A DNA stretch of 64,000 bases. Source: an uncultured Bacilli bacterium. Lineage in GTDB: Bacteria; Bacillota_I; Bacilli_A; RF39; UBA660. The notes below the pieces were generated by a model. The model was not told the DNA's origin. It saw nothing but the letters and a program-made list of their open reading frames with translations, and ran no database searches. This document shows positions 8,749 through 34,271 of this stretch, piece after piece. The position numbers were made by a program, and so were the translations under genes. Where the stretch lies: contig CALVZC010000005.1 of NCBI GenBank assembly GCA_944372425.1, positions 332-64,331 on the forward strand. Reading direction: 5' to 3'. Numbering within the stretch: the stretch's first letter is position 1; every line of letters starts with the position of its first letter.

Positions 8749-8825
8749 AAAGAGGCGCTAGTACAGGCTTATAATTTAATAAGTTTTTGTATTGGTGTTT
8801 TTTAGTAGTAAAGGAAGTTAGATTA

Positions 8826-13589: not shown

Positions 13590-13617
13590 GACCTAGTCCG
13601 ATTAAAGGACTAGGTCA
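13590..13617. terminator. bidirectional hairpin between convergent genes
   Basis: GACCTAGTCC-N-GGACTAGGTC preceded by an A-run. Confidence 0.65.
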
Positions 13618-14862: not shown

Positions 14863-14876
14863 ATATCACATCCTTT

Positions 14877-16179
14877 CTATAATTCAAATAACTTATGAAA
14901 TTCATCAGCAGCTTCTTCTGCTTCTTTATTAAGTTTTTTAGTAGCTTTAATTGAATCAGCTAAACTAATATAATCACTTACATATTTCATAGGTTTTCTA
15001 TTTAACTTAATATCTAAAGCATCTGATACTTTGTTAAATGCATTTTTCCAATATTTAATTTCATCATCTTTAGTTCTTAATTCTATATTTTGCTTATAAA
15101 TATACTGTTTGGTATTAATTAATTCTTTATTATTTTTATAAAAATTATTTTCTATTGATAAACTATTAATAGTCTTTTCATTAGAATCTAATTTATTTTT
15201 ATTTATATTGTTTAATCTTTCTAAATCAGTAGAGTAGTCAATTAACTTTTCAACATCTTTAGAATTATACCCAATAATATTTTTCTTAACATTTAAATTA
15301 TTATTTTTAATATTGTTTTCTAAAACTTTTTTGGATTTATATAATTTAATATTACAATTCTCAATATCTTTATATAAATTATTTATTTCAGATTTTAATT
15401 CATTTATCTTATATTCTAATTTAGTCTGATGAACTTTATTAGAACCAATATTACCTCTATCTAATTTAAAACCGCAATCGGTTATATATTTATTAAATTT
15501 GTCTTGAATATTAGCAAAAGAATTTCTACCACCTAAATCTTTCCAAAATTGATCATTATTTAAAAAGTTACCTTTAACAGATTCGTAAATAATTTTATTA
15601 TCTTTATCTCTAAGTAATATTGTTTTACCATTAATCTCTTTTATAACATTTTCTTTTAACTTCATTAACAATAGGTAAGAAATAAGCTTGTAGGTGAGGA
15701 GTATCTTCATCATAATGAACTTGAGCCATTACTATATTTTCTTTACCAACTAAATCTTCTAAAAACTTCATACAATAATCAAAATATTTAGTTACATCTT
15801 TAGGAATATCATCTTTAGATTTAATATTAGGTACTAACATATTTTGACCTTTCTTATCACCTGATTGATAAACCCTATCAGTTTCTTTAAATGGTAAACC
15901 CAGAGTCATAAAAAACTCTGGGCCACTTGTAAATGTTACACCATTTAAGATATTTGTTTTAGTTTTATGAGAATACTCAATATTTCTATCTTTTAAAATT
16001 GATTTAACTTCTTGATGTAAATTACTCTTATCAATATCTTTATAATGTACATTAAATTTAGTTCTTTCTAAATCATAATTACCTGTACCAATTCTTTTAT
16101 TCATTTCATTGCCTATAAGATATAAATCTTTAGTTTTATAATTATTAACAAATCTTAATACTTGTTTTCCATCATACAT
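14877..16179 (-). pseudogene. MobV/Pre plasmid recombination enzyme (relaxase), frameshifted
   Basis: VHYDEDTPHLQ motif. Frameshift near 15632 joins the 182-aa and 278-aa ORFs. The second part has QDKF...GF.L.RG and a coiled coil. Confidence 0.85.
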
Positions 16180-16210
16180 ATATCAACCTCCTTATATGAA
16201 AAAAACAACC

Positions 16211-17062
16211 TTAGTGGTTGTTAGCTTGATTTTCTACTATTTGAGTATCTTTTACTGTAGAATTAGTATTTATTATTTCATATTTTCCTTTTCTGTCTTT
16301 TGAAATCCATATTTTATATAACATTTCAGTTTTTACGTTTGCAAAATTATATATATTAAATTGAAATATAAAACATAAATTTATTTTGTTTTTCATCATA
16401 TAATCGAAACATTTATTTGGTTCACAATAGACTTTAAAGTGAACGTAAAATTCGTTGCTTGAAATCCAATTTAAGTATACTTCTTTTATAAGTTCTATAT
16501 CTAATCCTAGTGGAATAGGATTATTGGAACCATCTTCCCAAAATAGCCCTTTTTCATTTGGATCTTGTACACACATAAAGTCTTCTAACTCTATTTTTTT
16601 TATATGGTTTTTTTCAGATGAATTAGAAAAATATAATTTAATTAAATATTCATTTAATTTATCTATATTGTTATTATATCGTTCAATTAATATATTAGCA
16701 CCATAATCTAGTTTATGATGACTGGACCATGTTATTTTTGCATTATTATTATGCTTAACAGAAGCCTCAAATTTATTTTGCAATTGTATAAAGTCTGTAG
16801 ATTCTAATAAATCTTTATTTAGTAATTGTTTGCTAATGTCATTTGATTTTTTTGTTTGCCATATTGAAATTGCTCCTAATGTTATAGTTCCTATAAAAGA
16901 TAATAAACCGCCGTAAAAACTTAATGCATCTCCTGCAGACCATTCGCTTTGTAACCACCATATATTGAAATCAAATTTAAATAAGATATTAATAATAATT
17001 GGTATCATAATTATTATTAAAGAAATAATAACAATGGCAAACAATTTAAATAATTTTTTCAT
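16211..17062 (-). CDS. hypothetical protein with two N-terminal TM helices
   Basis: Hydrophobic segments, LSFYGGLLSFIGTI motif, GAGGTG RBS. Confidence 0.75.
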   Translation of the reverse strand: MKKLFKLFAIVIISLIIIMIPIIINILFKFDFNIWWLQSEWSAGDALSFYGGLLSFIGTITLGAISIWQTKKSNDISKQLLNKDLLESTDFIQLQNKFEASVKHNNNAKITWSSHHKLDYGANILIERYNNNIDKLNEYLIKLYFSNSSEKNHIKKIELEDFMCVQDPNEKGLFWEDGSNNPIPLGLDIELIKEVYLNWISSNEFYVHFKVYCEPNKCFDYMMKNKINLCFIFQFNIYNFANVKTEMLYKIWISKDRKGKYEIINTNSTVKDTQIVENQANNH

Positions 17063-17165
17063 GGCATTTCACCTCAACATCTATTATACCACTATAATTA
17101 GTCATTTTATGACTTATCTTACTAGGGCATAGCCCAAAATGTGAGTTAGGATAAATCCTAAGACC

Positions 17166-17381
17166 TTATTCTTCAAAACTAAGTGGTTCAATAAACTTAG
17201 CTTTATAATTTCTAGATGTAGCAGTTCTATTTAATTCAATGTATATGCCTTCTTGTTCTAACCTTTTAATATTACTATTTAATAATCTACCGAAGCGAGA
17301 AGGGGTAATTAATAAGCTTAACTCAGCTACTATTTCAGCCGGTGTAAATATAACTTCTTTTTTCTTAATTACATATCTCAT
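17166..17381 (-). CDS. small winged-helix-like ORF, possibly the separated C-terminus of the RepA-like helicase
   Basis: Overlaps the end of 17378-18109. TPAEI...PSRFGRLL resembles C-termini of element helicases. Confidence 0.45.
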   Translation of the reverse strand: MRYVIKKKEVIFTPAEIVAELSLLITPSRFGRLLNSNIKRLEQEGIYIELNRTATSRNYKAKFIEPLSFEE

Positions 17382-18109
17382 AATGCAGATATATTAAAAT
17401 CTAATTCTGTATTATCTTCGTTCATTATTTCAAATATTAATTTGTCATTCTTTATTAAATTAAGATTTTGTTCTTCAAAATCTCTATTAATTATTTTTAA
17501 TGTGTAAGTATTATCTTTGTTATTAATTAGAGTTAATATGCCATTCATATTTCCGTCTATACCTGTACTACCTAAGGTTTTGCCTTCTTTATTTAAATAA
17601 TGTACTAATAGAAATGTTAAATTATACTTTTTAGATAGTTCTCTATATTTATCAAACATCTTTTTCATAACATCACTATAATTATTAATATCTAATTCAT
17701 AACCGTAATCAATACCACACATAATATCAACTATTACAAATTTACCGTTATATATTTCAGAGAATTCTTTTAAATCTAATTTTAAATCATCAGTTAAACA
17801 TAATTTATGTTCAGAATCTTTCTCAAGGAAGAAAAACGAGTTAGGAGAAAACTCACAACCCGTTATATTTAATCTTTCCTTAAGTTGTAAACTCGAGAGT
17901 TCTGTGCTAATATATAAAATAGGAGTGGGATTTACTTTAAATCCTAAGAACTCTTTATTGTTAGTTAGAGAATTGGCAATCTGTAGTGCTAAAAACGATT
18001 TGCCAACTTTGGGTTCTGCTACTAAACAATATAATCCATTAGACTTCATTATTCCATCAATAATGTTGTCTTTTTTTATGTCTGTATTTATTTGTTCTAT
18101 AGGTATCAT
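17378..18109 (-). CDS. AAA_25 / RepA-like helicase of the mobile element
   Basis: AEPKVGKS Walker A, ILYISTE, VIVD Walker B, LVHY, LGSTG. Confidence 0.8.
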   Translation of the reverse strand: MIPIEQINTDIKKDNIIDGIMKSNGLYCLVAEPKVGKSFLALQIANSLTNNKEFLGFKVNPTPILYISTELSSLQLKERLNITGCEFSPNSFFFLEKDSEHKLCLTDDLKLDLKEFSEIYNGKFVIVDIMCGIDYGYELDINNYSDVMKKMFDKYRELSKKYNLTFLLVHYLNKEGKTLGSTGIDGNMNGILTLINNKDNTYTLKIINRDFEEQNLNLIKNDKLIFEIMNEDNTELDFNISAL

Positions 18110-19588: not shown

Positions 19589-21538
19589 ATGTTTGATATA
19601 CAAAATAGAAGATACACAGGAAGTAAATACAAATTAATGGACTGGATATCAAAGTTAATTAAGGAAAACTGTCCAAATTGTCGTTCGTTTTTTGATGTAT
19701 TTGCAGGGACTGGTTGTGTTACAGAATATATGTTTGAAAAATATGATAGGTTTATTATTAATGATTTTTTGTATTCTAATAATGTTATATATAATGGTTT
19801 CTTTTTGAACGAAGAATTTGATGAAAATAAACTATTAGATTATACAGAAAAATATAATAATCTTAAAATTAATAAAATTAAAGATAATTATGTATCTGAT
19901 AATTTTGGAAATAAATTTTTTAGTTATAATGATGCAAAAAAAATTGGATATATACGTGAAAATATTGAAAAAGAGTACAAGAAAAAAAATATAAACTTTA
20001 AAGAATATAATATTCTTGTTTCTTCACTTTTATACTCGTTTGATAAAATTGCGAATACATGTGGTCATTATGATGCATATAGGAAAATACAAAAAATAAG
20101 TGATTCATTTGAATTTAATTTAATTAATCCTAAAAAATATAATAATAAAATAGTTGAAATATATAGAAAAGATTCAAATAAGTTAGCAAGTGAAATCAAA
20201 TGTGATGTAGCATATATAGATCCTCCATATAATTCGAGACAATATAGTAGATTTTACCATGTTATGGAAAATATTGCACAATGGAAGAAACCAGAATTAT
20301 ATGGCGTTGCTATGAAACCTAAAGAGGAAAATATGTCAGAATATTGTAAGACGTCTGCTCCAATAGCATTCAATGATTTGATTCAAAAATTGGATACCAA
20401 ATATATAGTGGTTTCTTATAATAATACTTATGAATCAAAAAGTAGTTCATCAAAGAATAAAATAATATTAGAGGAAATAGAGACCATACTTTCTAATAAA
20501 GGCGATACTATAAAATTTGAAAAAAAATATAAAGCATTTACAACAGGAAAGACAGAGTTAAATGATCATAAAGAGTTTATATTTATTACTAAAGTAAAAC
20601 CTAACATAAAAAAAGAAATATCTTATCGTTCGCCATTATTTTATGTTGGAGATAAATATAAATTGATGCCAGAGATAAAAAAACATATGCCTACATATAT
20701 AAATAATTATATAGAACCTTTTGTAGGTGGAGGAAGTTCATTTTTGAATGTAAAAGCTAATCATTATTATGTTAATGATATAGATAGTGCTATAATTAGC
20801 ATTCATAAAGAATTACAAAAATATTCTAATGATAAAGATAAATTTTTTAAAAATATATTTGGTTTGATTAAAAAATATGGACTATCTTGTTCTTATAATG
20901 GTCATTTAGTTCCTAATGAATTAAAAGAACAATATAAAAAAACATATTATGCAAAATATAATAAAGACAATTATTTGAAACTAAGAAAAGACTATAATGC
21001 AAATAAAAATGATGTTTTAAAACTTTATTTGTTATTAATATATGGGTTTAATCATATGACGAGGTTTAACTCAAAAGGAGATTTTAATTTACCAGTAGGG
21101 AATGTAGATTTTAATAGTAATGTTTATAATTCATTAAATTATTATTTTGATTATATAAATAAAATAGATATAAATTATTTTAATTTGGATTATAAAGAAT
21201 TTGTAAGAGAATTAAAAATTGGCAAAAATGATTATGTATTATTAGATCCACCATATTTAATAAGTGATAGTGAATATAATAAACTATGGAATGAAAAACA
21301 TGAAATGGAATTATATGATTTTCTTGATGAATTAAATGCTAAAGGTATTAAATTTGGTATAACTAATCTTATGTGTCATAAGGGTCAAAAAAATAAATTT
21401 CTTGAAAAATGGTCAAAAAAATACAATGTATATGAAATTAATAGTAATTATATTAGTTTTAATGATAATACTGTTAAAATAAATTCAAAGGAGGTGTTTG
21501 TTACAAATTATGACAAAGAGGAGAAAACCAGAATATAA
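19589..21538 (+). CDS. fused two-domain D12-class adenine DNA methyltransferase (type IIS, FokI/AlwI-like)
   Basis: Two sets of motifs: DVFAGTG + YIDPPYN, and EPFVGGGS + LDPPY. Confidence 0.92.
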   Translation: MFDIQNRRYTGSKYKLMDWISKLIKENCPNCRSFFDVFAGTGCVTEYMFEKYDRFIINDFLYSNNVIYNGFFLNEEFDENKLLDYTEKYNNLKINKIKDNYVSDNFGNKFFSYNDAKKIGYIRENIEKEYKKKNINFKEYNILVSSLLYSFDKIANTCGHYDAYRKIQKISDSFEFNLINPKKYNNKIVEIYRKDSNKLASEIKCDVAYIDPPYNSRQYSRFYHVMENIAQWKKPELYGVAMKPKEENMSEYCKTSAPIAFNDLIQKLDTKYIVVSYNNTYESKSSSSKNKIILEEIETILSNKGDTIKFEKKYKAFTTGKTELNDHKEFIFITKVKPNIKKEISYRSPLFYVGDKYKLMPEIKKHMPTYINNYIEPFVGGGSSFLNVKANHYYVNDIDSAIISIHKELQKYSNDKDKFFKNIFGLIKKYGLSCSYNGHLVPNELKEQYKKTYYAKYNKDNYLKLRKDYNANKNDVLKLYLLLIYGFNHMTRFNSKGDFNLPVGNVDFNSNVYNSLNYYFDYINKIDINYFNLDYKEFVRELKIGKNDYVLLDPPYLISDSEYNKLWNEKHEMELYDFLDELNAKGIKFGITNLMCHKGQKNKFLEKWSKKYNVYEINSNYISFNDNTVKINSKEVFVTNYDKEEKTRI

Positions 21539-23060
21539 ACAACTTAATTTTGATACTGCTATGAGGAATCCTGAAAGATTAAAAGATGTTTTATTATTAA
21601 TTAAATCATATGAAGGAATAGAATTAAATGATAAAAATTTATTAGATATTGTTTGCGATATGTATGAAAGTGGTATTGTAAAAAGTGACGAATTTGATAT
21701 TAAAAAATTACATAATAGAGAGCAAATTCAAAAGAAAGTAATAGAAATTAATAGAACAAGAAATGGTGATGGGGGATTTCCAAAAGGTTATCAGTCAAGA
21801 TTTTGGACATACATGAGAACACTTTCCGAATTTGGTTTTGTTTATGCAAGGTATAATAAAAAACTCCTTATTGGAGATGTCGCAAAAAAATTAATTATTA
21901 ATGAGATAGATCCTCAAGAAGCATTTTCACTTCAAGCTATGAAATATAATTGGAGATCACCATATAAAAATGTTAGCAATGATTATAACTATTTTAAATT
22001 TATTATAAAAGTTTTAAAGGAACTAGATAAAAAAGACAAAAAATTAAGTTACAATCAGTTTGTAGTATCTTTATTCAGTAAAGAAGATAACGTTGAAAAA
22101 TTTTTAACAACGATTGAAAACAATTCATTTGCTACAGAAAATTCAGTTTATGAATATTTGAAAGAGGCATATGGCAAACAAAATAAATTTGGTACAGTCA
22201 TAAAAGATTATCCTGATACTGTTTTGAGAATGTTAAGAATTACTGGTTTTGTTAATATTGTTAATCAAGGTGTTTTATTAATTGAGTTTAATCATGATAG
22301 TGAAAAATTTGTAAATTATTTTTTAGAAAAAGAAGATGTTTTCACTGAAAACGAAAAAAATGTTGATATAGATTATTTTAATAAAATAAATATTATAGCA
22401 AATGATGAAATGAAACTAATAAAAACTAACAGAAATAGTAATATAGAAATTATGGATTATAATTTTATATTGAATAAGGTTGTTAGTGATTATAAATTAA
22501 ATATTGAATCGATACTAGAACATATTTCTAATATTGGAGTAAGAGGTAAAAACCTTGAATTTAAATATATAGATTATCCTTTGCAATTTGAATTTTATTT
22601 ATCAATTCTTTTATATTTAGTTTATGGTGAAACATATTCTGTTAGACCAAATTATAAGATTGATGCATATGGTATGCCTATATCTCATGCACCAGGTAAT
22701 TGCGGAGATATAGAGGTTGTTGGAAATGGTATATACTGGTTATTAGAAGTAACATTAATAAGAAATAAAGCACAACAATTGAACAATGAAACTGCTAATT
22801 TATTTAGGCATATTTCAGATCAAGAATGGGCTGAAAAATATATGTCATTAGTAGCCCCATATGTTCATGCTGATACTTATAAATTTTTCAATGCTTTAAT
22901 TGTTGACTATATTAGAGAACATGGAAAGAGTAATTTTAATGCTAAATGTTATACTGCAGATGAATTTATAAAAGAATGTACTTCTAAAAATATATTTGAT
23001 GATATGAAAAAATATACTCATGAATACAAACAAAGCTTATTAAATGCTTTAAATAGTTAA
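21498..23060 (+). CDS. AlwI-family type IIS restriction endonuclease
   Basis: N-terminal FDTAMRNPER, C-terminal P.SHAPGN.GDIE...LLEVTL, overlaps the MTase gene. Confidence 0.85.
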   Translation: MLQIMTKRRKPEYKQLNFDTAMRNPERLKDVLLLIKSYEGIELNDKNLLDIVCDMYESGIVKSDEFDIKKLHNREQIQKKVIEINRTRNGDGGFPKGYQSRFWTYMRTLSEFGFVYARYNKKLLIGDVAKKLIINEIDPQEAFSLQAMKYNWRSPYKNVSNDYNYFKFIIKVLKELDKKDKKLSYNQFVVSLFSKEDNVEKFLTTIENNSFATENSVYEYLKEAYGKQNKFGTVIKDYPDTVLRMLRITGFVNIVNQGVLLIEFNHDSEKFVNYFLEKEDVFTENEKNVDIDYFNKINIIANDEMKLIKTNRNSNIEIMDYNFILNKVVSDYKLNIESILEHISNIGVRGKNLEFKYIDYPLQFEFYLSILLYLVYGETYSVRPNYKIDAYGMPISHAPGNCGDIEVVGNGIYWLLEVTLIRNKAQQLNNETANLFRHISDQEWAEKYMSLVAPYVHADTYKFFNALIVDYIREHGKSNFNAKCYTADEFIKECTSKNIFDDMKKYTHEYKQSLLNALNS

Positions 23061-23134
23061 TATTTATGTGAATAAATAATTATTATATAAGCAGTAATAA
23101 AAAAGCATGAATATTTAGGGATTTTAAAAAATAG

Positions 23135-25289
23135 ATGCAAAGTCTGAAATATAAGGGAGGAACAATAATGGAAGTTGGTAAAAAGAAAATTTTAAATGGA
23201 TTTATTGGAGGTAATAACAGCACACAATTTGTTATACCTATTTATCAAAGAAATTATGTATGGGAAAAGAAAAATATTCTTCAATTATTAGAAGATATTG
23301 AAAAAATGATTCCTTATTATGATAATGAAGATGAAAATATTTTTTCATTTTTTTGGAAGTATTGTTTACATTGATACTTTACATAAAGGGTCATTTAGTG
23401 AATGGACCATAATAGATGGACAACAAAGATTAACAACAATATTTTTAATATTACAAGTATTAAAACAAATATATTATGAGCAAGAAAAAATAATAACAAA
23501 AAAATATTTATTGAATGATGAGGATATAATCAATACAAGTGATGAAATGGATAGGTATAGATTGAAACCTCTTGTAAGTGATGATAATGTTTATAAATTA
23601 ATATCAGATAACAAATTAGAACGTTTAACAGATTCAGAACAAAATTCAAATGTTTTAAAAGCTTATAATGTTATTAGAAAAGAGTTAGAAAAATGGAAAT
23701 CAAAGTATACGTTTGAAGAAATAATAGGTGCTATAGATAAATTTAAAGTAGTGTGGATACAATTAGATAAAAAAGAAGATCCACAACAAGTATTTGAATC
23801 AATAAATTCTACTGGAGTTAACTTGTCAGCAGCAGATTTGATTAGAAATTTTGTTTTGATGAACAAAGATAATTCAACTCAAACACACATATATAATGAA
23901 TATTGGAGTCCAATAGAATTTGATTATGTTGGTACAAAAAATTTAAAAGAATTTTTTAGATTTTATGTTTCAATTAAAGAGAAAATAACAATTCCAGAAA
24001 GAGAAGTTTACGAAAAATTCAAATTACAATATGAAAAATTGTTAGCAGAGCGTAATGAAGAAGAAATATTAAGTGAAATTTTAAATTATGCTAAATATTA
24101 CTATTATATTTCACATGATGCATCTGAAAGTAATAATCAAATTTTAGAAGAAATTCTTAAGGATTATAGAAATGCAAAATCAAATATGCCTCATATTGTG
24201 ATAATGGAAACAATGAATTTATATTTTAATAAACAAAGCATTGAAGAAAGTGACTTGTTAAATACTATAAAATTATTAACAACTTATATAGTGAGAAGAA
24301 ATATTTGTGGAATTGATACTAAATCAATTTCAAATATATTTGGTTCGATGCTTGGTAAGATACTAAAGAAATTTGATGAAGGCGAAAATTACTATAATTC
24401 TGTTTTAAAAACCTTTGTTGTTGATACAAGACTAACAAATCAGTTTATGCCAACTGATAAAACTGTCGAAGAAGAATTTAATAAATCAAATTTATATTCA
24501 AGAGAATCTACAACATTTGTATTGAAGAAAATAGAAAATAATGAATCAAGAATTCCATATTCAAATTTAAATGTCGAACATGTAATGCCTCAAACTGAAA
24601 CAAAATATTGGTCTAAATACATTAATGAAAATAGTATATATGAAGAAGTAGTTAATCGCATAGGTAATTTAACATTAGTTGATTCTAAAGATAATTCTAG
24701 TATGGGTAATAGAAATTTTGAAGCAAAAAAACAAGTATTAAATAAATCTAGACATATAAAAATGAATGAAGATATTTTAAATAAAGAAAATTGGAATGAA
24801 ACTAAGATTTTAGAAAGAAGTAAAAAATTGTCGCAAGAATTCATTAAAATATTTCCATATCCAGATATTGTTATTGATGAAACAGACGATATTTACATGC
24901 ATATAAATTTAAATGATGATTCTATCAATGATTATAAAGATTATGCATTTTCTAATCCTTTGGAAATTAGTATTGATGATAATAGCATTGATTTTAGTGG
25001 AAATTGGAGTGATGTTTTGGCTAGAATTTTAGTTGAGCTATATAGTTATGATACAGAAAGTTTTATTAAAGCATCTAAGGAGATAATAGATGAATATGGT
25101 TATAAGGGAATTCAAATAGCTAATAATCCTATAGGAATGAGAACACCTTATGAATTTATAGATGGCATGTTTGTAGAGATTAATACTAATACAATACATA
25201 AACTCTCATTAATGCAAAGGATGATTGCAAAAATGAATTATGAACCAAGAATTGTTATTACTTATATAACAAAAAATACTGAAATATAA
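23135..25289 (+). pseudogene. GmrSD-type (DUF262 + DUF1524) type IV restriction enzyme, +1 frameshift in a T6 run
   Basis: IPIYQRNYVW, FFGSIV, IIDGQQRLTT, VFESINSTG, VEHVMPQ...IGNLTL. One extra T at 23340-23345 splits the ORF. Confidence 0.88.
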
Positions 25290-25357
25290 TTATTAAAAGG
25301 GGAATGAAATCTTCTCCTTTTTTTGTTATAATATTTAACTAATAAGTTGGTGATATT

Positions 25358-26269: not shown

Positions 26270-26519
26270 TTTTTAGGTATAGTTTTAGATACACAAATCC
26301 ATAAACTCTTATAAAATAAGGATTTTAATATTTTATAAAACTAGCCAAATTAGAACTGGATCACTCTCCTGAAGGATCCATAATGCTCATTTTTCACATT
26401 TATTTTTTTAGACTATTATTAACTGATACAGTTCTTTTTTCTAGAAAAAAAGAGTGTATGATATAAAATTTATAAAATGTGATGTATAATATTATAAAAA
26501 GATTTGGTGATGTCAATAA

Positions 26520-27170
26520 ATGAAGAATATAAAAAGAAATATTGTATATGTTGGTTATGATTCATATTACAAAGATACTCTTAAATTACGTGATACAAAA
26601 ATAAATAATATTAAACCAAATTTAATTAATATTGATACATTAGAAGAACTTGATAGAAAACAAGGATTCTTGTTGTTACTTACAATGGATGAATTATATG
26701 ATTATTTTCCTAATATAGTAGATATATTTGAACCAGATGTTTATGAAATTGATAGATATTTGAGAAAAAAGTTTAAAAATTTTGAATACGTAATTGTAAT
26801 TTCAATTGAAGAGTTTGATTATGGTCATATACCTTTTTCTAATATGTATGTATTATTTGCAAATAACTATTTCAATACAGACGAAGGTATTAATGTCTTA
26901 ATAGATAAAATATCTAAAGAATTTATATCTAAGAAAGAAAGTAAACTATCAAAAATAAAATTTAATAATATAGAAAAATTAAGAACTTTTATTAAAAAGT
27001 CTAAGAAAGATTTTTTTACAACAGAAGAAATAAAACAAAAATTAAATGTAAATGAAAAATGGATTCAAAGATATATGAAAGAAATGAATAATATTTATAA
27101 TAATATAGGCTATAATAAAAGAAAAAGGTTATGGTATGTTGTAAAAAAAACAACACGAAAAAATAAATAA
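26520..27170 (+). CDS. hypothetical protein with C-terminal DeoR/HTH_11-like helix-turn-helix
   Basis: FTTEEIKQKLNVNEKWIQRYMKEMN...Y. Confidence 0.6.
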   Translation: MKNIKRNIVYVGYDSYYKDTLKLRDTKINNIKPNLINIDTLEELDRKQGFLLLLTMDELYDYFPNIVDIFEPDVYEIDRYLRKKFKNFEYVIVISIEEFDYGHIPFSNMYVLFANNYFNTDEGINVLIDKISKEFISKKESKLSKIKFNNIEKLRTFIKKSKKDFFTTEEIKQKLNVNEKWIQRYMKEMNNIYNNIGYNKRKRLWYVVKKTTRKNK

Positions 27171-27179
27171 AAACAATGA

Positions 27180-27208
27180 AAAACGTAGAAATACGTTTTA
27201 TTTTTTTG
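27180..27208 (+). terminator. probable terminator
   Basis: AAAACGTA-gaaa-TACGTTTT followed by a T-run. Confidence 0.55.
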
Positions 27209-27283
27209 TCCATCACAAAACACTAGCCCAGCAAAAATTTTAATTAAGAGTTATAGTTATATCAAGAAAAGGAGGAATAGCAT

Positions 27284-27988
27284 ATGTTAGAGTTTGTTGA
27301 AAAACTATTAAGTTCACAAGATAACATTATAGATCAGCTAAAATTATTAAGAGAAAATAAAGATAATAAGGAGGTTAAGAAATATATGCGAGCTCTTGTT
27401 AAAAACAATAACTCGCCATATTTCAAATATTGTATTGACAAATATTATTTTAATAAAGATGTAAAGGAGGTAAAACCATCAATAAGACCATTAAGACCAC
27501 TGTATCATTTGAGAAAAACAAAAAAAATACAGAGTCTTTTAGAATCTAGAAATAATATTATTGATCAACTTAAGTTACTAAAAGAATATAAAGGTACTAA
27601 ATATGTTGATACTTATATTAAAGAATATTTAGAACTTTGGTCAAATGAGTACGAAGCTTACTGCATTCAAAAATATTACTATGATATGGATGTTAAAGAA
27701 GTAGAACCTAATGCCAAAAGTCTTAATATTACTTTATATAGAATTTCTTTTAGAGAAACAGAAAGTAAACAAGAAAAAGACAAACAAAATGGTTATGCAA
27801 AATCAATCAAGAAAAACGATAAAATAAAAATACTAGATGGTCCTTTTAAAAATCAAATCGGAATAGTAAATTCCTTTGATAGAGATAATTCTAAAATATT
27901 TGTTACAATTTCTCTTTTTGAAGAAAAATTTAATATAGAATATGATGGTAAGTTTGAAAAAATTAAGGAGGCTAAAAGTGAAAAATAG
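27284..27988 (+). CDS. protein with two ~58-aa internal repeats and a C-terminal NusG-type KOW domain
   Basis: LL.S..NIIDQLKLL.E.K...YCI.KYY...DVKEV.P occurs twice. KOW: DKIKILDGPFKNQIGIV...V.ISLF. Confidence 0.8.
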   Translation: MLEFVEKLLSSQDNIIDQLKLLRENKDNKEVKKYMRALVKNNNSPYFKYCIDKYYFNKDVKEVKPSIRPLRPLYHLRKTKKIQSLLESRNNIIDQLKLLKEYKGTKYVDTYIKEYLELWSNEYEAYCIQKYYYDMDVKEVEPNAKSLNITLYRISFRETESKQEKDKQNGYAKSIKKNDKIKILDGPFKNQIGIVNSFDRDNSKIFVTISLFEEKFNIEYDGKFEKIKEAKSEK

Positions 27989-30653
27989 AATAGAGTTACA
28001 TGCTAAAACAAAATATAGCATAGACCATGAAAGTACAATCGATATTAAAGAATTAATATTAAAGTGTGCCAGTAATGGTGAAAAAGGTGTAGCTATTGTT
28101 GATAAAGATAGCGTCCTTGGTTTTTTAAAAGCAGAGAAAATACTAAAAGAATTAAATATAAAAAATTTTAAATTAGTATATGGAATAGAGGTAAATGTTT
28201 TTATTGAAAAACTAACTTATAAAGCTGTAATTCTATTAAAGAAAAGAAATGGACTTTCCACACTATATAGAATGTTATCCCCTTACTTCACTAATAATAA
28301 ATTACTATTAGAAGATTTAATGCTTAGTAAAAAGAATTTTATAATTGGTTTAATATATGAACAAGACAATTATAATTCTAATATATTACAATATTTTAAT
28401 TATGTAGAAGTAGATGATAAAGTATCTGAAGAAGTAATTGCCAATTTAAAAAGAAAGACTTTAGTAGTTTACTCAAATAGAATTAATGCCTTATCAAAAG
28501 ATGAAGAATTAAGTAAAAAAGTTCTTTATAACAAATTACATATAAAAGAAAAAATTGATACTAGAATCTATAAAAGTACACAAGAAATTTTAAAACAGGT
28601 AAAAGATATGGAAATTGTTATTGATAACCCTAATAAAATATTTAATATGATAGAGAATTTCAACTTGTTAGAAAATAACATTTATTTACCTGTAGATGAT
28701 AATTCATATATTGATTTGTTAGTGAATACTAAACTGAATGAAAAATATAATAATGATATTCCGTTGAAAGTAAAAAAACGTATTGATGAAGAATTGAAAC
28801 TTATTAAAGAACATAATTATGAAGGATTCATTAATTTATATAAAAAAATAATTGATAAGTGCAAAGAAGAACAGGAAGAATATGTTATTTGTGATTACAT
28901 TAATTATTTATATATTGCTTATTTACTAGGAATAACACATTTTGATCCAATAAAGCATAATCTAAATTACGAACTTTTTTTTATCAATCATCCCAAAATC
29001 ACCATTAAAATATCACCAGAATTTGTTAAAAAATTAAATATTTTTATTAAAGAAGAACTAAATGTTAATATGATTAGATGTAAAGGATTGATGAGATTAA
29101 ATAGTAGTAATGTTAAAAATATAATTAGTGATTATAAGAAAAAATATAATATTAAAATCTCTACTCCGGATAAGTTACTTATAAATAAATATTTAATGAA
29201 TTATCCAATTAATAATTGGGCATTAACTCCAAAGAATTTTATATTACCTGTTGGTGTTAATATATTTGACTTATCACCCCGTGAACTTATAAAAGAAGAT
29301 GATTCATATCATAGAGTTACAAATATAGATTATAAGGATATTGAAGAAAACTTTATAACATTAGAATTAATATCAACTGATAAATTAATGCATTTAATGG
29401 AATTGAAAGACATTACTAAAGATAAGATAATTAATTGTAATTATAAAGATAGTAATATTATAAAAAATGAAGCTTTTCAAGATTATTTAGAAGCTTATCA
29501 AAAAGATATATTATTGGATGATTTATATGAAGACTGTTTAAATAGTAAAATTGATTTAATTGAAATATTTAATATAATTAATGAAATAAAGCATGAAAAA
29601 AATATTTCTAATAAAACTAAGAAAATATTGACTAAAAACAATATAGTAATAAACGACAAGAATGCTAATTTTATTTGTAGAGGCATATTAAATGAAAGAA
29701 CTAGATTAGAATATGAACTATTGTATTTTAAAAAATATTATCCATTAGAGTACTATTATGTTTTATTAAAAGATTGTCCTTTTAATGATATTATAGACAT
29801 TATAAAAAATGGTTATGAAGAGGTTAAAAATAGAATTAAAGATTATTCAAAATATAGATATGAATATAAATATTTAAAGTTAGTAGCAAAGTTATATGAA
29901 TCAAATATTAATTTTTCTATTGAAGAAAGAGAAATAGTAGAAGATTATTGTTTTGAATTAGATAAGGAAAATAAAAAAATAATTTTAATAACTAATAAGA
30001 CAAATAATGAAATTTATAAATATTTATCTAATAATTTATCTATAATAGGAACAAGACCAATAAATGGAAAAATGCCATATATGAGTAAAATAATCGCTAA
30101 ATTAATAAGAATTAATAAAGATGTAATATTGTTTGGATTAGATGGAAAAACTAATTTTTATTTAGAATATCTATTATCTGAAATAACTAGAATAGATAGA
30201 AAAGCAATTAGGCAATATTTAAATCCATGCTCTTGCTATAAGGATAGTATTTTAACAATCGATGAAGAACGTTATATTAATGGAATAAGATATTTGTTAT
30301 ATCATAATTTAACAATAAAAGATTACCATAATGTTAAAGATATTATTATTGATGATGCTAACATGATGATAGATAAATTAATTTATATGATTGAAGAGAG
30401 TGAAAGTAAAGTAATAATCATTGATAGAGTTGAATCTATAGAAGGTAATATTAGTAATACTTTAGAAAGAATAAAAGAAATTGCTAAATTAAAAAAACTT
30501 AATGTCATACTTTTTACAAATCTAAAAAAAGAATATGAAGAATCTAACAAAAAGGATATATCTTCGTTTGAAAATAATGAATTGTTGGATAAATATGTTG
30601 ATTATATAAATATTTTAGATGATAAAGAGTTATATCATATAAAGGAAAAATAA
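27978..30653 (+). CDS. degenerate PolC/DnaE-like (PHP + polymerase remnant) protein fused to a degenerate DnaB-like ATPase domain
   Basis: RIELHAKTKYS...VAIVDKDSV...YGIE, RIDEELKLI, IAYLLGITHFDP, YFKKYYPLEYY, then IIGTRPINGK, IIIDRV, IKEIAK...NVILFTNL. GTG start at 27978 follows GGAGG. Confidence 0.75.
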   Translation: MKNRIELHAKTKYSIDHESTIDIKELILKCASNGEKGVAIVDKDSVLGFLKAEKILKELNIKNFKLVYGIEVNVFIEKLTYKAVILLKKRNGLSTLYRMLSPYFTNNKLLLEDLMLSKKNFIIGLIYEQDNYNSNILQYFNYVEVDDKVSEEVIANLKRKTLVVYSNRINALSKDEELSKKVLYNKLHIKEKIDTRIYKSTQEILKQVKDMEIVIDNPNKIFNMIENFNLLENNIYLPVDDNSYIDLLVNTKLNEKYNNDIPLKVKKRIDEELKLIKEHNYEGFINLYKKIIDKCKEEQEEYVICDYINYLYIAYLLGITHFDPIKHNLNYELFFINHPKITIKISPEFVKKLNIFIKEELNVNMIRCKGLMRLNSSNVKNIISDYKKKYNIKISTPDKLLINKYLMNYPINNWALTPKNFILPVGVNIFDLSPRELIKEDDSYHRVTNIDYKDIEENFITLELISTDKLMHLMELKDITKDKIINCNYKDSNIIKNEAFQDYLEAYQKDILLDDLYEDCLNSKIDLIEIFNIINEIKHEKNISNKTKKILTKNNIVINDKNANFICRGILNERTRLEYELLYFKKYYPLEYYYVLLKDCPFNDIIDIIKNGYEEVKNRIKDYSKYRYEYKYLKLVAKLYESNINFSIEEREIVEDYCFELDKENKKIILITNKTNNEIYKYLSNNLSIIGTRPINGKMPYMSKIIAKLIRINKDVILFGLDGKTNFYLEYLLSEITRIDRKAIRQYLNPCSCYKDSILTIDEERYINGIRYLLYHNLTIKDYHNVKDIIIDDANMMIDKLIYMIEESESKVIIIDRVESIEGNISNTLERIKEIAKLKKLNVILFTNLKKEYEESNKKDISSFENNELLDKYVDYINILDDKELYHIKEK

Positions 30654-30654
30654 G

Positions 30655-31326
30655 ATGGACAAGGTTAAAGAATATATTTTAAACAATAAGATTACACTTG
30701 TTATTACTTCACCAAACTCAAAAATTTTATCTATTATTAATTTACTAAATGAATTATCAATTAAAGGAAAATATAAGACTGTTTTATTCAGTTTTAACAT
30801 TAGCTGTAATTATTATTTACAAAAATTAATATCATTTCTATCAGGTATTAACAATAGTATAATCACAAAGTATTTTTATCCATATGTAATAAATAGTAAA
30901 AAGAATAGAGATAAGATTAATCGTAATAAATTTATTGATTCATTAGAAGAAATACAGAGTAGCAATATTTTAATGAATAGTGAAAAATATGCTGTTGATA
31001 AAGATTATTTAGATTATATTCTAGATTACTCAGAAAGCAATGTGTTAATAATTGATGATTTTTATGCATTACTAGATAAGACAAAGTATAGTCTAGATGA
31101 AATATTAATAAAAGTAAAAGAGAAACAAGATATTCATTTAGTTTTATTTATAAAGACAAAATATAAAGAAAAAGTAGTAAGACAATTTGCCGAAGTAATA
31201 AGAAATTATATTTTTATAGATGGATTTAATTATGAGGAATATAAAGAGATAAATATTAATATTTTAAATAAAACATTCAAATTGCAATTAAATAAAATGA
31301 ATCAAATAATGAAGACAAACGATTAA
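30655..31326 (+). CDS. degenerate DnaB-like RecA-fold protein
   Basis: TVLFSFNIS...LQKLISFLSGI and VLIIDDF echo DnaB FSLEMS...MLSSESGI and LIIDY. No Walker A. Starts 1 bp after the previous stop. Confidence 0.6.
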   Translation: MDKVKEYILNNKITLVITSPNSKILSIINLLNELSIKGKYKTVLFSFNISCNYYLQKLISFLSGINNSIITKYFYPYVINSKKNRDKINRNKFIDSLEEIQSSNILMNSEKYAVDKDYLDYILDYSESNVLIIDDFYALLDKTKYSLDEILIKVKEKQDIHLVLFIKTKYKEKVVRQFAEVIRNYIFIDGFNYEEYKEININILNKTFKLQLNKMNQIMKTND

Positions 31327-31445
31327 GAAAATTGATAAATTTGAAAATATATTGTAAGAGTTTATATTATTAAAGAGCATTGGAGTTTTTAAGAAAAGTA
31401 AGGGCTGATATGCTATACTAAGATTAGTAAGTTAGAGGTGAGTAT

Positions 31446-32681
31446 GTGAAATTAAAAATATTAAAAGGTACTAGTGAAATAGGTGGATGCATAACAGAAA
31501 TAGTAAGTAATAAAGGAACAAGGATTATTATTGATCTAGGCGAAGATTTACCAGATGATAATGTATCAAAATGTGAAAATCCAAATATTGATGGCTTAAC
31601 TATAGGTGATAAAAAGTATGATGCAGTTTTTATTACACATAGCCATGGTGATCATATTTGTCTAATAAATTATGTGTTAGATGGTATCGATGTTTATGTT
31701 GAACCTACTTCCAAAATAATATATAGTTTATTATCTACTTTTACACATAAGAAAATAAGATTTAAAACTAAAGATATGTTTTTTAAAAAAAAGATAATAA
31801 TTAATGATGATATAATTGTGACACCATATATAGTTGATCATTCATCATATAATTCATCAATGTTATTAATTGAGGCCGATGGCAAGAAGGTACTGCACAC
31901 AGGAGATTTCAGAAATCATGGAGTTAAAGGTAAATTGTTTGTACCAACACTAAAAGAAATTGGAAATGTTGATATAATTGTAACTGAAGGAACTTCTTTA
32001 AGTAGAGGTAATGTTAAATATAAAACAGAGGAAGATATAGTTAAAGAAGCCAAAATGGTATTTTATAACTATGACCAAGTTTTTATTTTACAATCATCAA
32101 CAAATATTGATCGTATTAGAGGTTTTTATAAAGCAGCAAAAGAAACTGACAAAAATTTTATAGAAGATCTTTTTACTTCAAATATAACAGTTTCTTTAAA
32201 AAATGATTCTATTCCTAATCCTAAAACATTTAATGATGTTTATACATGGATACCAAGAAGATATCTAGACAAATCATTTAGGTTTAAGAAAAAGTATTTG
32301 TTTACTTTTTTGAAATATAGTAAGCAAAAATCTTATGTTAATAATAAATATGCATTAATGGTAAAGACATCGATGATTGAAGACATAAAAAAACTATATA
32401 ATAAAAATCATATTACTAATGCGTGTTTAGTATATTCAATGTGGGAAGGATACAAAGAAAAAGTAGAAATGAAAACCTTTTTTGAAGAGGTGAAGAAATA
32501 TGGAATTTCTGATATAATAGACATACATACCTCAGGTCACGCTGATAAAGAAACTCTTGGCTTATTAAGTTTTCTTAAAGCAAAAAAGATAATTCCTATT
32601 CATACGATTAAAAAAGAAGAATTATCCAATATTTTAGATAATGTTTATTTATTAGATGATAATGAAATATTAGATGTATAG
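31446..32681 (+). CDS. MBL-fold (RNase J-like, beta-CASP) metallo-hydrolase
   Basis: EIGG, IIDLG, THSHGDH, VDHS, HTGDFRNHG, HTSGHA, PIHT. Confidence 0.9.
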   Translation: MKLKILKGTSEIGGCITEIVSNKGTRIIIDLGEDLPDDNVSKCENPNIDGLTIGDKKYDAVFITHSHGDHICLINYVLDGIDVYVEPTSKIIYSLLSTFTHKKIRFKTKDMFFKKKIIINDDIIVTPYIVDHSSYNSSMLLIEADGKKVLHTGDFRNHGVKGKLFVPTLKEIGNVDIIVTEGTSLSRGNVKYKTEEDIVKEAKMVFYNYDQVFILQSSTNIDRIRGFYKAAKETDKNFIEDLFTSNITVSLKNDSIPNPKTFNDVYTWIPRRYLDKSFRFKKKYLFTFLKYSKQKSYVNNKYALMVKTSMIEDIKKLYNKNHITNACLVYSMWEGYKEKVEMKTFFEEVKKYGISDIIDIHTSGHADKETLGLLSFLKAKKIIPIHTIKKEELSNILDNVYLLDDNEILDV

Positions 32682-32693
32682 AAGGAGATATTT

Positions 32694-34133
32694 ATGGATA
32701 ACATAAGTAATTTAAATATTAGTGATATTGCTAAGCAAGTTATTAAAAGATATGTTGGTAAAAAAGATTATGTTGTAAGAATTAGAGTAAATAAAAAAAA
32801 TAAAAAACACAAAGTAGAAATTGTTGTATATTATGAAGGAAGAAAATCATTTGAAGTTAAAGACAATAAGTTATTGTTAGATGGAGCTTATTTCTTTACT
32901 AAAGGAAATAAAAAAATTACACATTCTATGGAGACGGAAATTGCTTGTTTAACTAAATTAGGTTTTTCATTTAAAATTGGTACCAAGATTGATTCTACTA
33001 ATCAATATTATAAAGATGGATATAGATATCGTATTTTTGTAGAACCTTCTAGTGCTAAAAAAGGATCTAAAGAATGTTATGACAATTATAAAGAAGAAAT
33101 AAAAGAAAGAATGGAAGTTATTTTAGAAGCTTTAAAAAGATATGATAATGATTTTATATATCATTATGATAATGAAACAAATATAAATAGTTTTTATACT
33201 AAAAAAGTTGATAATACTATTAATTATTTTAAATTAAATGAATTATTAAAAATAGGTATAGATAACACTGCTAAACAAAAAGGCATTAAGAAAATCAAAT
33301 TTAATGAAAAATTGGTTGGTTCCCAAACGACCTATACTGAAGAAGAATATAGAATAATAGATTCTATTATGGAAAATAGAATTAAGACATATAATTTTGG
33401 AGTTCTTTTAGAAGAAAATAAAGAAGAATATATCGATAACAATGAAAAAATATATCAACAATTACTTATGAACAAGATGTTTGATAAAAATGCAAGAGAA
33501 CAACTTTTCAAAGTGGATAATTGCCCTTTTAAAGATAGCAATGCGTATGAAATGGAATATAACTTATATGCTGCAAATAGAACTAATCGTAAACAGAAAA
33601 CAAAAAAAGGAAGAGTAGATAATATATTTATAAGAGGTAATAAGATTTTATTTACTGAATTAAAGTATGATGAAAAAGTTATTGGAGGCACAAATGGAAT
33701 TCATAAGCATTTAATTGATTTAATTAATGGATTTGAAAAAAATGATGAAGCTTTATCTGAAATATATGACTATGTATGTGATTACAATGATGTGTTAACT
33801 TACATTAATGATAAAGAAGAATATATTATTAAAAATGTGAAGAGATTTAATGACAAAGAAGTAGAAAAAGAATTTATAATTATATGTGGATATTCAAATA
33901 GTAAAAGGAATGTTGTTTATAATGAATTAGAAAGAGTTTATCCACTAACAGGAAAAAATGCTGGAGTAGAAAAATCATATAATATATTTTTAGATAATAA
34001 AAAAATCAATTTAGAGAATATGACTACTGAAGAGTTGATTTATTTACTTAAAAATAGATATCATTGTGAAACTAAGATTTTCATAGTAGATAACAATTAT
34101 ACTAAATTTGAAATATATCAAAGAAATGTGTAA
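32694..34133 (+). CDS. hypothetical protein with C-terminal PD-(D/E)XK nuclease motif
   Basis: EKIYQQ...EMEY...GRVDNIF....ILFTELK...G.NGIHKH..D. 12 bp downstream of the MBL gene. Confidence 0.65.
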   Translation: MDNISNLNISDIAKQVIKRYVGKKDYVVRIRVNKKNKKHKVEIVVYYEGRKSFEVKDNKLLLDGAYFFTKGNKKITHSMETEIACLTKLGFSFKIGTKIDSTNQYYKDGYRYRIFVEPSSAKKGSKECYDNYKEEIKERMEVILEALKRYDNDFIYHYDNETNINSFYTKKVDNTINYFKLNELLKIGIDNTAKQKGIKKIKFNEKLVGSQTTYTEEEYRIIDSIMENRIKTYNFGVLLEENKEEYIDNNEKIYQQLLMNKMFDKNAREQLFKVDNCPFKDSNAYEMEYNLYAANRTNRKQKTKKGRVDNIFIRGNKILFTELKYDEKVIGGTNGIHKHLIDLINGFEKNDEALSEIYDYVCDYNDVLTYINDKEEYIIKNVKRFNDKEVEKEFIIICGYSNSKRNVVYNELERVYPLTGKNAGVEKSYNIFLDNKKINLENMTTEELIYLLKNRYHCETKIFIVDNNYTKFEIYQRNV

Positions 34134-34271
34134 ACTATAAATAATTTTGTTTAAATAAAAAATATGATAGCAAATACAGTAATATTAAATTTTAAGTATA
34201 AATTAACAAAATTTATAATATCTTTACTTAATTTAATCATAATGATAAAATTATTAAAGGAATGGTGAATT

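Follow-up and report, generated by a model that had tools for sequence, protein, structure and literature searches.

Both the Y-family (ImuB) and the X-family of DNA polymerases are known to include inactive homologs with an adaptor role, according to the available part of one survey (PMC12926913). For the C-family, the available parts of two surveys set out a division into DnaE1-3 and PolC and discuss inactivation for the PHP and DnaQ domains only; in those parts, neither mentions a polymerase-dead C-family group or a fusion to DnaB (PMC3919608, PMC12926913). The ImuA-ImuB-DnaE2 mutasome, as these same parts describe it, is a patchy accessory cassette in which an inactive polymerase homolog and an inactive RecA-like partner stand beside a C-family polymerase (PMC12926913, PMC3919608). 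Here, we describe a gene from a 64,000-nucleotide stretch of DNA of an uncultured Bacilli bacterium (contig CALVZC010000005.1; the whole stretch is called the window below), the product of which, hereafter the target, joins a PolC-like protein to a DnaB_C-type RecA-like domain and belongs to a cassette of six genes that includes two nucleases. Judged by its alignments, the target is homologous both to C-family polymerases and to DnaB_C, and fails the catalytic criteria of both.

We read the target as an ImuB-like pseudo-enzyme adaptor within a nuclease cassette that is, as far as searched, undescribed. Our literature search found no inactive C-family polymerase, no PolC-DnaB_C fusion, and no such cassette, with subscription journals and supplements outside its coverage. 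It is important to keep the mutasome and the present locus apart in several respects: the dead polymerase of the mutasome is of the Y-family (ImuB) and its C-family DnaE2 is active, it has neither nucleases nor a KOW protein, and no sequence relationship to the target was shown beyond the level of superfamilies.

A homolog search recovered the fused protein as 15 cluster representatives of 886-900 residues and 50-100% identity (the fused family). As in PolC and DnaE (3f2b, 9qpc), the order of domains in the target is PHP, palm, thumb, and fingers, colinear over ~590-670 columns with an hhalign probability of 100%. Pfam finds PHP (PF02811) in the target at an E value of 5.2e-9 (37.1 bits, cut-off 26.4) and in 14 of the 15 family members, and DNA_pol3_alpha (PF07733) at 42.6 bits (cut-off 23.9; profile positions 2-94 of 260) and in all 15. 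The PolC and error-prone DnaE models of NCBIfam match at E 4e-16 (58 bits against cut-offs near 900), and in PHROGs the target matches phage DNA polymerase family 405 (E 2.6e-14). Searched as a single sequence against solved structures, the target finds PolC only, in colinear pieces that represent the PHP domain, the palm, the strand of the third aspartate, and the YFK helix; the family profile finds PolC 9qpc at E 4e-28 and 3f2b at E 2.5e-21. For comparison, we used an alignment (A8) of 15 PolC-like sequences that keep the aspartate triad, with the PolC of this genome (host PolC) among them. Aligned to A8 by hhalign, the fused family gives a probability of 100% and E 1e-59 over 666 columns, and a second run in the register of host PolC gives E 8e-50 over 587 columns. 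On these profiles, the likeness of target residues 1-~650 to PolC is far above chance level.

The catalytic residues are another matter. Residues K340, T342, and E463 of the target face D1112, D1114, and D1300 of host PolC, both by hhalign and in MAFFT alignments A2 and A7, an equivalence by sequence profile and not by 3D structure. The three aspartates are invariant across the 15 active sequences of A8; in the fused family, position 340 is K/R/N/S/Y and position 342 T/M/N/S, never acidic. E463 is invariant in the fused family, and its place is taken by Q or K in the nearest stand-alone cousins. An earlier note, made from the letters of the window, had proposed that the catalytic aspartates are lost, and the profile-profile alignment agrees, with K340 and T342 falling on the aspartates of PDID and Glu463 on the third.

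The same profile and MAFFT alignments allow the motifs to be read side by side. Host PolC RGSVGSSFVATLMGIT corresponds to CDYINYLYIAYLLGIT in the target, where DYI stands in place of RGS and AYLLGIT is retained; VPDIDLNFS corresponds to HPKITIKIS, LLKLDILGH to FITLELIST, and FPKAHAAAY...WYKVHMP to ICRGILNER...YFKKYYP. The fingers domain, with its dNTP-binding basic residues (PF17657), has no Pfam match in the target; hhalign aligns the region, with YFK..YP kept and PKAH read as CRGI. For the PHP domain, activity is judged by the metal-ligand motif HHDHEH[C/H]DH, following the available part of the source (PMC12926913). We assigned its nine ligands to host PolC residues by motif order, a mapping of our own, by which three are retained in the target (H8, D16, E71) and six replaced (H to K10, H to K43, H to K82, C to Y127, D to R168, H to N170). 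The altered ligands had been pointed out in the earlier note from ELHAKT and VDK (in the target, RIELHAKTKYS and AIVDKD), and all of its motif readings are present in the target, including CDYINYLYIAYLLGIT without RGS, HPKITIKIS, YFKKYYPLEYY, and, in the second half of the protein, GTRPINGKM and VIIIDRVES.

Unlike PolC, the target has no N-terminal domain, OB domain, or DEDD exonuclease insert when aligned to the host enzyme. No alignment extends past host PolC residue ~1586, beyond which the RecA-like domain replaces the remaining region, and Pfam matches no clamp-binding, (HhH)2, or OB module, a dedicated motif search not having been made. The reading of the polymerase core and PHP domain as catalytically dead is well supported by these alignments, on which the core would be incapable of two-metal nucleotidyl transfer or PHP proofreading.

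Turning to the second half, the first Pfam scan gave no DnaB_C match for the window's own target protein at E<=1; a six-frame search of the genome with PF03796 (of which T7 gp4 and KaiC are wider relatives) gave the target frame 29.6 bits (cut-off 27; E 2.3e-7). Within the fused family, DnaB_C is matched in 7 of 15 members (best E 2.9e-10) and KaiC in 2 of 15, and the three stand-alone relatives of the C-terminal domain that were tested, P0041, P0046, and P0050, all match DnaB_C at 4e-13 to 3e-8. A last homolog search for short relatives of this domain gave eight proteins, all of which look like fragments of the fused gene.

Like the C-terminal domain of DnaB, the target conserves the P-loop lysine, the Walker B aspartate, and the "NL+RE.E" region. 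Compared with host DnaB, Walker A reads GTRPINGKM for AARPAMGKS, the region of the catalytic glutamate FGLDGK for FNLEMS, and Walker B IIIDRV (in the context VIIIDRVES) for IIIDYL. Residues G691, T692, R693, P694, N696, G697, K698, and D816 are invariant in all 15 members. The residue after the P-loop lysine is methionine in at least 90% of the family, as opposed to GK[ST], and the place of the catalytic glutamate varies (D/N/G/S). Similarly, SDLRESG of host DnaB aligns with SSFENNE, leaving no arginine at the arginine-finger place, in a part of the alignment that is less certain; the roles of these positions as catalytic glutamate (motif H1a) and arginine finger of DnaB are ones we take as given.

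Pfam matches no DnaB N-terminal domain in the target, and the RecA-like domain, with no such domain or linker of its own, directly follows the polymerase core. This is therefore not the architecture of a helicase, and the word "helicase", used in the earlier note, is too strong; the fusion itself stands, the PolC-like part being found by Pfam and hhalign and the DnaB_C-type part by Pfam. Because the P-loop lysine and the Walker B aspartate are invariant, the domain may still bind nucleotide or phosphate; hydrolysis is unlikely. It follows that the claim of two dead halves holds for the polymerase and PHP domains and should be worded conditionally for the ATPase half.

The gene is a single open frame, and its coordinates in the earlier note (27978..30653) agree with the lengths of the homologues, the GTG/ATG start, and the upstream AAGGAGG. 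The open reading frame (ORF) as such spans 27942-30653. Its first in-frame ATG, at 27942, is probably not used, since the homologues have 886-900 residues, the 85%-identical ortholog in L003 has ATG where the window has GTG at 27978, and AAGGAGG lies 7 nucleotides upstream of that codon (GGAGG at 27966-27970). The start overlaps the stop of the upstream KOW gene by 11 nucleotides, and the end lies 1 nucleotide before the next start.

One 90% cluster of the fused protein has 24 members, of which all 15 listed have 891 residues, and one member of it was found on 63 contigs. The fused gene also occurs in L001, the record of a complete chromosome of 1.31 Mb, and in two other records of metagenome-assembled genomes, and contig X9 (3289 nucleotides, from another study) spans 27500-30788 without a gap, across the junction of the polymerase-like and RecA-like parts. 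At least half of the words of 26400-34200 occur in 19 sequencing runs, mostly chicken-gut metagenomes, one of which may be the source, and the 20 rows with any part of it represent 11 studies. The ratio of non-synonymous to synonymous substitution (dN/dS, by a Nei-Gojobori script) between the target and its L003 ortholog is 0.25 overall, with 0.24 for the PHP domain, 0.23 for the core, and 0.29 for the RecA-like domain. Given the recurrent representatives, the independent contig across the junction, and a dN/dS of ~0.25 in all parts, the target is a real gene under purifying selection, neither an artefact nor a pseudogene, and the fusion is not confined to one assembly, as the earlier note had allowed it might be. 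In addition, one metatranscriptome run gave four small contigs on the target, MBL, and 479-aa genes (Table 1), where carry-over of DNA is possible.

The genome assembly of the window (G000) measures 1.38 Mb in 74 contigs, and the G+C content of the window is ~22%. Searches with PF07733 and PF03796 found the separate polC, dnaE, and dnaB that the earlier note had called for: a dnaE ORF of 980 residues (PF07733, E 1.6e-91), a polC ORF of 1652 residues (PF07733, E 2.8e-55), and dnaB (PF03796, E 8e-103), all elsewhere in the genome.

Table 1. Positions in the window of the six cassette genes and of the parts and motifs of the target (aa, amino acids)
Feature	Position	Strand	Evidence
wHTH protein, 216 aa; C-terminal winged-helix/helix-turn-helix, putative regulator; first conserved cassette gene	26520..27170	+	
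KOW-domain (NusG/Spt5-like) protein, 234 aa; duplicated N-terminal region	27284..27988	+	Pfam KOW E 2.4e-5, over cut-off
Target, 891 aa; PolC-like pseudo-polymerase with DnaB_C-type RecA-like domain; third cassette gene	27978..30653	+	
Target, PHP-like domain, exonuclease insert absent (aa 1-240)	27978..28697	+	Pfam PHP E 5e-9; alignment to host PolC
Target, palm-thumb-fingers core (aa 241-650)	28698..29927	+	PF07733 E 7e-11; hhalign probability 100%
Target, PKITIK at place of PDIDLN	28992-29009		
Target, Glu463 at place of third Asp	29364-29366		
Target, DnaB_C-type RecA-like domain (aa ~675-891)	30000..30650	+	PF03796 29.6 bits
Target, Walker A GTRPINGKM	30048-30074		
Target, Walker B IIIDRV	30414-30431		
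RecA-like paralog of the target's C-terminal domain, 223 aa	30655..31326	+	BLASTP
Beta-CASP metallo-beta-lactamase-fold (MBL) nuclease, 411 aa; catalytic motifs intact	31446..32681	+	Pfam Lactamase_B 5.7e-8, RMMBL 1.1e-3
479-aa protein; C-terminal PD-(D/E)xK-like nuclease domain (aa ~250-477)	32694..34133	+	

The two catalytic-looking members of the cassette are apparently nucleases; from the replication-like ones, the catalytic residues have been lost. The best named relatives of the MBL protein are RNase J-type beta-CASP enzymes (NCBIfam E 2e-15, far below cut-off), and its residues H65, H67, D69, H70, H132, D154, H361, H365, and H386 are invariant in 7 of 7 orthologs. For the 479-aa protein, searches of Pfam, PADLOC, and PDB sequences gave nothing; its family keeps E288, GR-D309, E322-x-K324, and H339..D342 in 24 relatives. 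The predicted structure (predicted local distance difference test 90.3, predicted template-modelling score 0.88) has a C-terminal domain that resembles the nuclease domains of the anti-phage effectors McrC, HamA (Hachiman), and Upx, and an Atlas search gave PDDEXK_13, NucS_C, and SduA_C clusters at scores of 0.77-0.88, under the 0.9 line. As for the 223-aa protein, it shares 25% identity with target residues 673-891 (BLASTP, E 1e-6) and has lost the P-loop glycines (TSP-NSKIL).

The two genes ahead of the target are less distinctive. Both matches of the wHTH protein, Pfam HTH_11 (E 2.2e-4) and DnaD_N (E 5.5e-4), are below cut-off. In the KOW protein, BLAST finds the internal repeat, NCBIfam nusG (8e-7) and LoaP (2.7e-5) match far below their cut-offs, and an Atlas search returned KOW clusters only, at scores <=0.80. 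A promoter scan gave 111 sites against 103 expected, which is uninformative in DNA of 22% G+C. One terminator-like site was found, at 25295-25321, and none within the cassette; Rfam gave 0 matches in 13000-36000, and a repeat search gave short chance-like pairs only. An imperfect palindrome at 26419-26466, with 27-nucleotide arms that are 78% complementary, lies ~55 nucleotides upstream of the wHTH gene and could be an operator or a chance product of AT-rich DNA.

By reciprocal BLAST of ORFs between loci, the cassette is conserved, with varying make-up, in seven further loci (L001-L004 and L025-L027). The wHTH orthologs lie upstream of it in L001, L002, L003, L004, L025, L026, and L027, and the KOW protein is likewise conserved in L001-L004 and L025-L027. 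The window shares its gene order (wHTH 216, KOW 234, fused protein, 223-aa, MBL 411, 479-aa) with L001 and L002, and in L003 the 223-aa gene is missing. The G094 cassette (L027) reads wHTH, KOW, a 593-aa polymerase-like protein, MBL, and a 443-aa 479-like protein. In G145 (L026), where the polymerase-like and RecA-like parts are separate genes, we find wHTH, KOW, a 203-aa RecA-like protein, a 683-aa polymerase-like protein, a 226-aa protein labelled unknown, a 244-aa RecA-like protein, MBL, and a 547-aa 479-like protein; G109 (L025) has the same set, likewise unfused in these parts, on the opposite strand of its stretch, with MBL and 479-like joined in one protein of 1035 residues. The 244-aa RecA-like type has NGKM as in the target, but Asn at Walker B.

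In a record labelled uncultured Clostridium sp., two tandem versions of the cassette, the first complete, occupy 3713-11476 of L004 and recur in L013: 479-like, wHTH, a stand-alone dead polymerase-like protein of 692 residues, and MBL; after these come KOW and a fused-type copy, which ends at 491 residues and looks like a decaying second copy. The Muribaculaceae locus L006 (8108-11792) has wHTH, a 678-aa dead polymerase-like protein, a 332-aa DEDD (RNase_T-type) exonuclease, and a second polymerase-like ORF that begins at the palm, carries MTFDLEF at the place of PDID, and is cut by the contig end. G007 and G495 have the MBL/479-like pair without a polymerase-like gene. In G007 (L044, 12431-16829), the MBL protein has 579 residues, with a 170-aa N-terminal extension that weakly resembles the beginning of the Pol III alpha palm (E 9.6e-4); the 344-aa protein that follows, which has no Pfam family, is 33% identical over 159 residues to the L006 DEDD exonuclease (BLASTP, E 2e-16), and a YhcG/DUF1016 PD-(D/E)xK gene precedes the pair. 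The gene fusions, namely polymerase-like with RecA-like in the target, MBL with 479-like in G109, and the weak Pol III alpha-like stretch on the G007 MBL protein, argue for a physical association of the parts.

A profile search of 1.84 billion representatives gave 896 proteins at E<=1e-3, of which 29 reached E<=1e-30. The fused form appeared among them at full length in a single representative, together with several stand-alone relatives of the C-terminal domain (204-241 residues) and many "mini PolC-like" proteins of 570-900 residues. The latter form a large, unannotated metagenomic radiation (P0025-P0173) with PHP and core and no exonuclease or OB domain, the Asp triad being kept in some and absent in others; a second dead clade here has the motifs ELH.E / VDYC / F.TLRFRP. 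Of 131 representatives with at least 450 residues, the three palm positions could be aligned in 72, of which 30 are D/D/D and 42 are not, some of these perhaps misaligned.

We placed the target in a quick, unfinished maximum-likelihood tree, midpoint-rooted, of 46 hand-picked rows: 6 fused proteins (cut to 650 residues), 5 locus cousins, 16 non-DDD and 17 DDD representatives, host PolC, and host DnaE. The fused family has full support (Shimodaira-Hasegawa-like approximate likelihood ratio test, 100), and its sister is a stand-alone dead clade of L004, L006, P0026, P0029, and P0032. A second dead clade, which includes G094, is in turn the sister of these two combined (support 88). The dead group thus has two deep branches, and the Asp triad is absent from all 18 of its rows. 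The polymerase-like proteins of G145 and G109 lie across the tree from this group, together with host PolC; one cassette frame therefore carries two polymerase lineages, one live-looking and one dead. The dead C-family form is not a one-off, given a triad-less clade of 18 rows and a recurrent cassette with two nucleases.

Close relatives lie in records labelled uncultured Bacilli and Clostridia, and a 31%-identical cousin in a Muribaculaceae record. The polymerase-like profile (E<=1e-20) finds 4 of 301 genomes of the order, with the fused form only in G000 and nothing in the three same-genus genomes, and the 479 profile finds 3 of 399 scored genomes of the phylum; a metagenome scan added one locus, L013, a copy of L004. 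Such patchiness across lineages suggests horizontal spread. Searches of 50,697 phage records, 72,556 plasmid records, and IMG/VR turned up no relatives: tblastn gave 16 phage records, all below 60% identity and with coverage of at most 46%, and 6 plasmid records, all ordinary PolC-like, and the 217 pattern matches in IMG/VR contained 0 relatives. A comparison with the three same-genus genomes for an empty site found no synteny with the window flanks.

On its 5' side, the cassette of the window, L001, and L002 is bordered by a restriction island that varies between them. In the window (19589-25289, + strand), it holds a double D12-class adenine methylase (649 residues), an AlwI-type restriction endonuclease (520 residues), and a GmrSD-type enzyme (656 residues; PADLOC Orf5, E 8.5e-94). 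The same flank has Type ISP, Pif1-like, and GmrSD genes in L001, and Type I HsdR and YgjP in L002.

What does the cassette do? The place of the target beside two apparently intact nucleases points to an undescribed DNA-sensing accessory system, and we favour a non-catalytic pseudo-enzyme subunit in a nuclease cassette, probably for defence, an explanation that, taken whole, we consider evenly poised. Its parts differ in strength: the pseudo-enzyme identity and the six-gene cassette are very probably right, and a defence role, by which we mean anti-phage or anti-plasmid conflict, falls a little short of an even chance. On this explanation, the dead polymerase core would retain its DNA-binding architecture and read DNA structure, such as a primer-template or a 3' end, and the RecA-like domain of the target would oligomerise with the 223-aa paralog or serve with it as a nucleotide-binding scaffold. 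The core and RecA-like parts would then position the two nucleases, or license them, to act on DNA that is foreign or replicates aberrantly, and transcription of the AT-rich operon would be sustained by the KOW protein. A conflict role fits because the spread is patchy, the cassette self-contained, the effectors nucleases, and the neighbour a hot spot. In the available parts of two sources, MBL-fold nucleases are known anti-phage effectors (PMC12799240, 10.1101/2025.09.03.673762), and the cassette shares such a nuclease with the trypsin-MBL modules. If the cassette does serve defence or genome maintenance, it would show replication enzymes reused as DNA-structure sensors, in a small, testable operon from hard-to-study gut Bacilli with reduced genomes.

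Several observations weigh against this explanation. The wHTH (with its weak DnaD_N match), polymerase-like, and DnaB_C-like parts together resemble a replication module. The "structurally equivalent" catalytic positions rest on profile alignments, and the nuclease pair also occurs without a polymerase-like gene, in G007 and G495. The polymerase-like proteins of G145 and G109 keep RGG, PDIDINF, and KFDILG, and therefore DNA synthesis may matter in some versions of the cassette. The restriction-island flank is one hot spot in three near-identical genomes, not three independent cases; in L003, L004, L005, L025, L026, and L027, most neighbours that have a Pfam family are housekeeping genes (CoaBC, LysR, GT2, PriA, RuvA, ABC, SufBD), with the exceptions of a Fic protein (L003) and a Bro-N protein (L004), many L004 neighbours having no family, and no integrase is found among the neighbours in these six contexts. 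Finally, of seven proteins of the cassette region (the six cassette genes and an upstream 303-aa ORF), six match no family in PADLOC-DB 2.0, a library dated 2023, the one match being that of the KOW protein to NsnC over 31 residues (E 1.7e-4).

Two further readings concern replication, neither of which we think likely. The cassette could be a "replisome-mimic" immune system, with the dead polymerase and the copy of the DnaB motor as bait or fork reader: the target would be engaged either by foreign forks or by factors with which phages or plasmids take over or block PolC or DnaB, and engagement would switch on the beta-CASP and PD-(D/E)xK nucleases. Were this true, it would be the first known pseudo-replisome immune sensor and the first C-family pseudo-polymerase clade. 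Or the cassette could be a mobile element's replication module, exapted or surviving as a relic, equally improbable in our view, with the wHTH protein as initiator, the target bringing in host PolC and DnaB as a non-catalytic replisome organiser or loader-like factor, and the nucleases processing replication intermediates. The DnaD_N-like wHTH (weak, E 5.5e-4), the C-family core, and the DnaB_C domain all have replication homologs, the palm triad is intact in the cassettes of two cousins, G145 and G109, a DEDD exonuclease and another polymerase-like fragment are present in the Muribaculaceae locus L006, and the remnant of an integrase with Mob_Pre and AAA_25 lies 10 kb upstream in the window. 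However, integrase, relaxase, and phage genes are absent from the flanks in L003, L005, L025, L026, and L027, the phage, plasmid, and IMG/VR records hold no relatives, and L001 and L002 carry different DNA between the cassette and any mobile genes. Moreover, the RecA-like proteins have no usable P-loop or Walker B even beside a live-looking polymerase, so they provide no helicase.

A cassette for DNA-damage tolerance or repair, in the manner of ImuA-ImuB-DnaE2, would have the dead homologs as adaptors at stalled forks and the nucleases trimming the lesion or fork. The logic of the mutasome is shared, DnaE2 cassettes are likewise patchy and horizontally transferred according to the available part of the source (PMC3919608), "error-prone DNA polymerase" is among the two best NCBIfam matches (E 3.8e-16, far below cut-off), and PriA and RuvA adjoin the G094 cassette. 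We nevertheless regard this as distinctly unlikely: the window cassette genes include no Y-family homolog (a LexA-type gene or operator was not looked for), the fused family has no active polymerase partner in its cassette, the cassette is very rare and absent from all three same-genus genomes, and no clamp-binding motif was noticed, no systematic search having been made. It is still less to be expected that the target is an enzyme with a non-canonical site, be it a nucleotidyltransferase or phosphoesterase (D451, D454, E463 or H8, K10, K12, D16, E71) or a GKM ATPase. Throughout the 15 members, none of these residues varies, nor do G691-T-R-P-x-N-G-K698 and D816, a conservation that exceeds the need of a pure scaffold, and dN/dS is equally low in the "dead" parts. 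Set against this, the positions of the PDID aspartates vary and are never acidic in the fused family, the third position is E there and Q/K in the nearest stand-alone cousins, the triad is lost in all 18 clade rows, and the Walker A Ser/Thr and the DnaB catalytic glutamate are missing, the latter at an unconserved position. An assembly artefact or decaying pseudogene would astonish us; the second fused-type copy in L004 and L013 does end at 491 residues, but a single frame of 886-900 residues is seen in 15 representatives, on many contigs, in the complete chromosome L001, and in other studies, with dN/dS 0.25.

Some further features of the window deserve a mention. The remnant of an integrative mobilisable element upstream of the cassette occupies 13602-18109 (- strand) and comprises a tyrosine integrase (13602-14585), a Mob_Pre relaxase whose split into two ORFs (14877-15713 and 15631-16179) is probably due to a frameshift, and an AAA_25/DnaB_C-like RepA-type ATPase (17378-18109). 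Next to it lies a likely STAND/Avs-type defence gene (8787-13574, + strand). Its product, of 1595 residues, carries a SMEK domain at the N terminus (Pfam E 3e-26) and fits the Avs4 model of PADLOC near full length (E 3.7e-28). Toward the window's far end, a 1515-aa protein at 56364-60911 (+) has no Pfam family, and a 693-aa protein at 52218-54299 (+) has a weak match to the HopA1 family (E 2.8e-8), with an rve-type transposase (51007-51789, - strand) just upstream of its gene.

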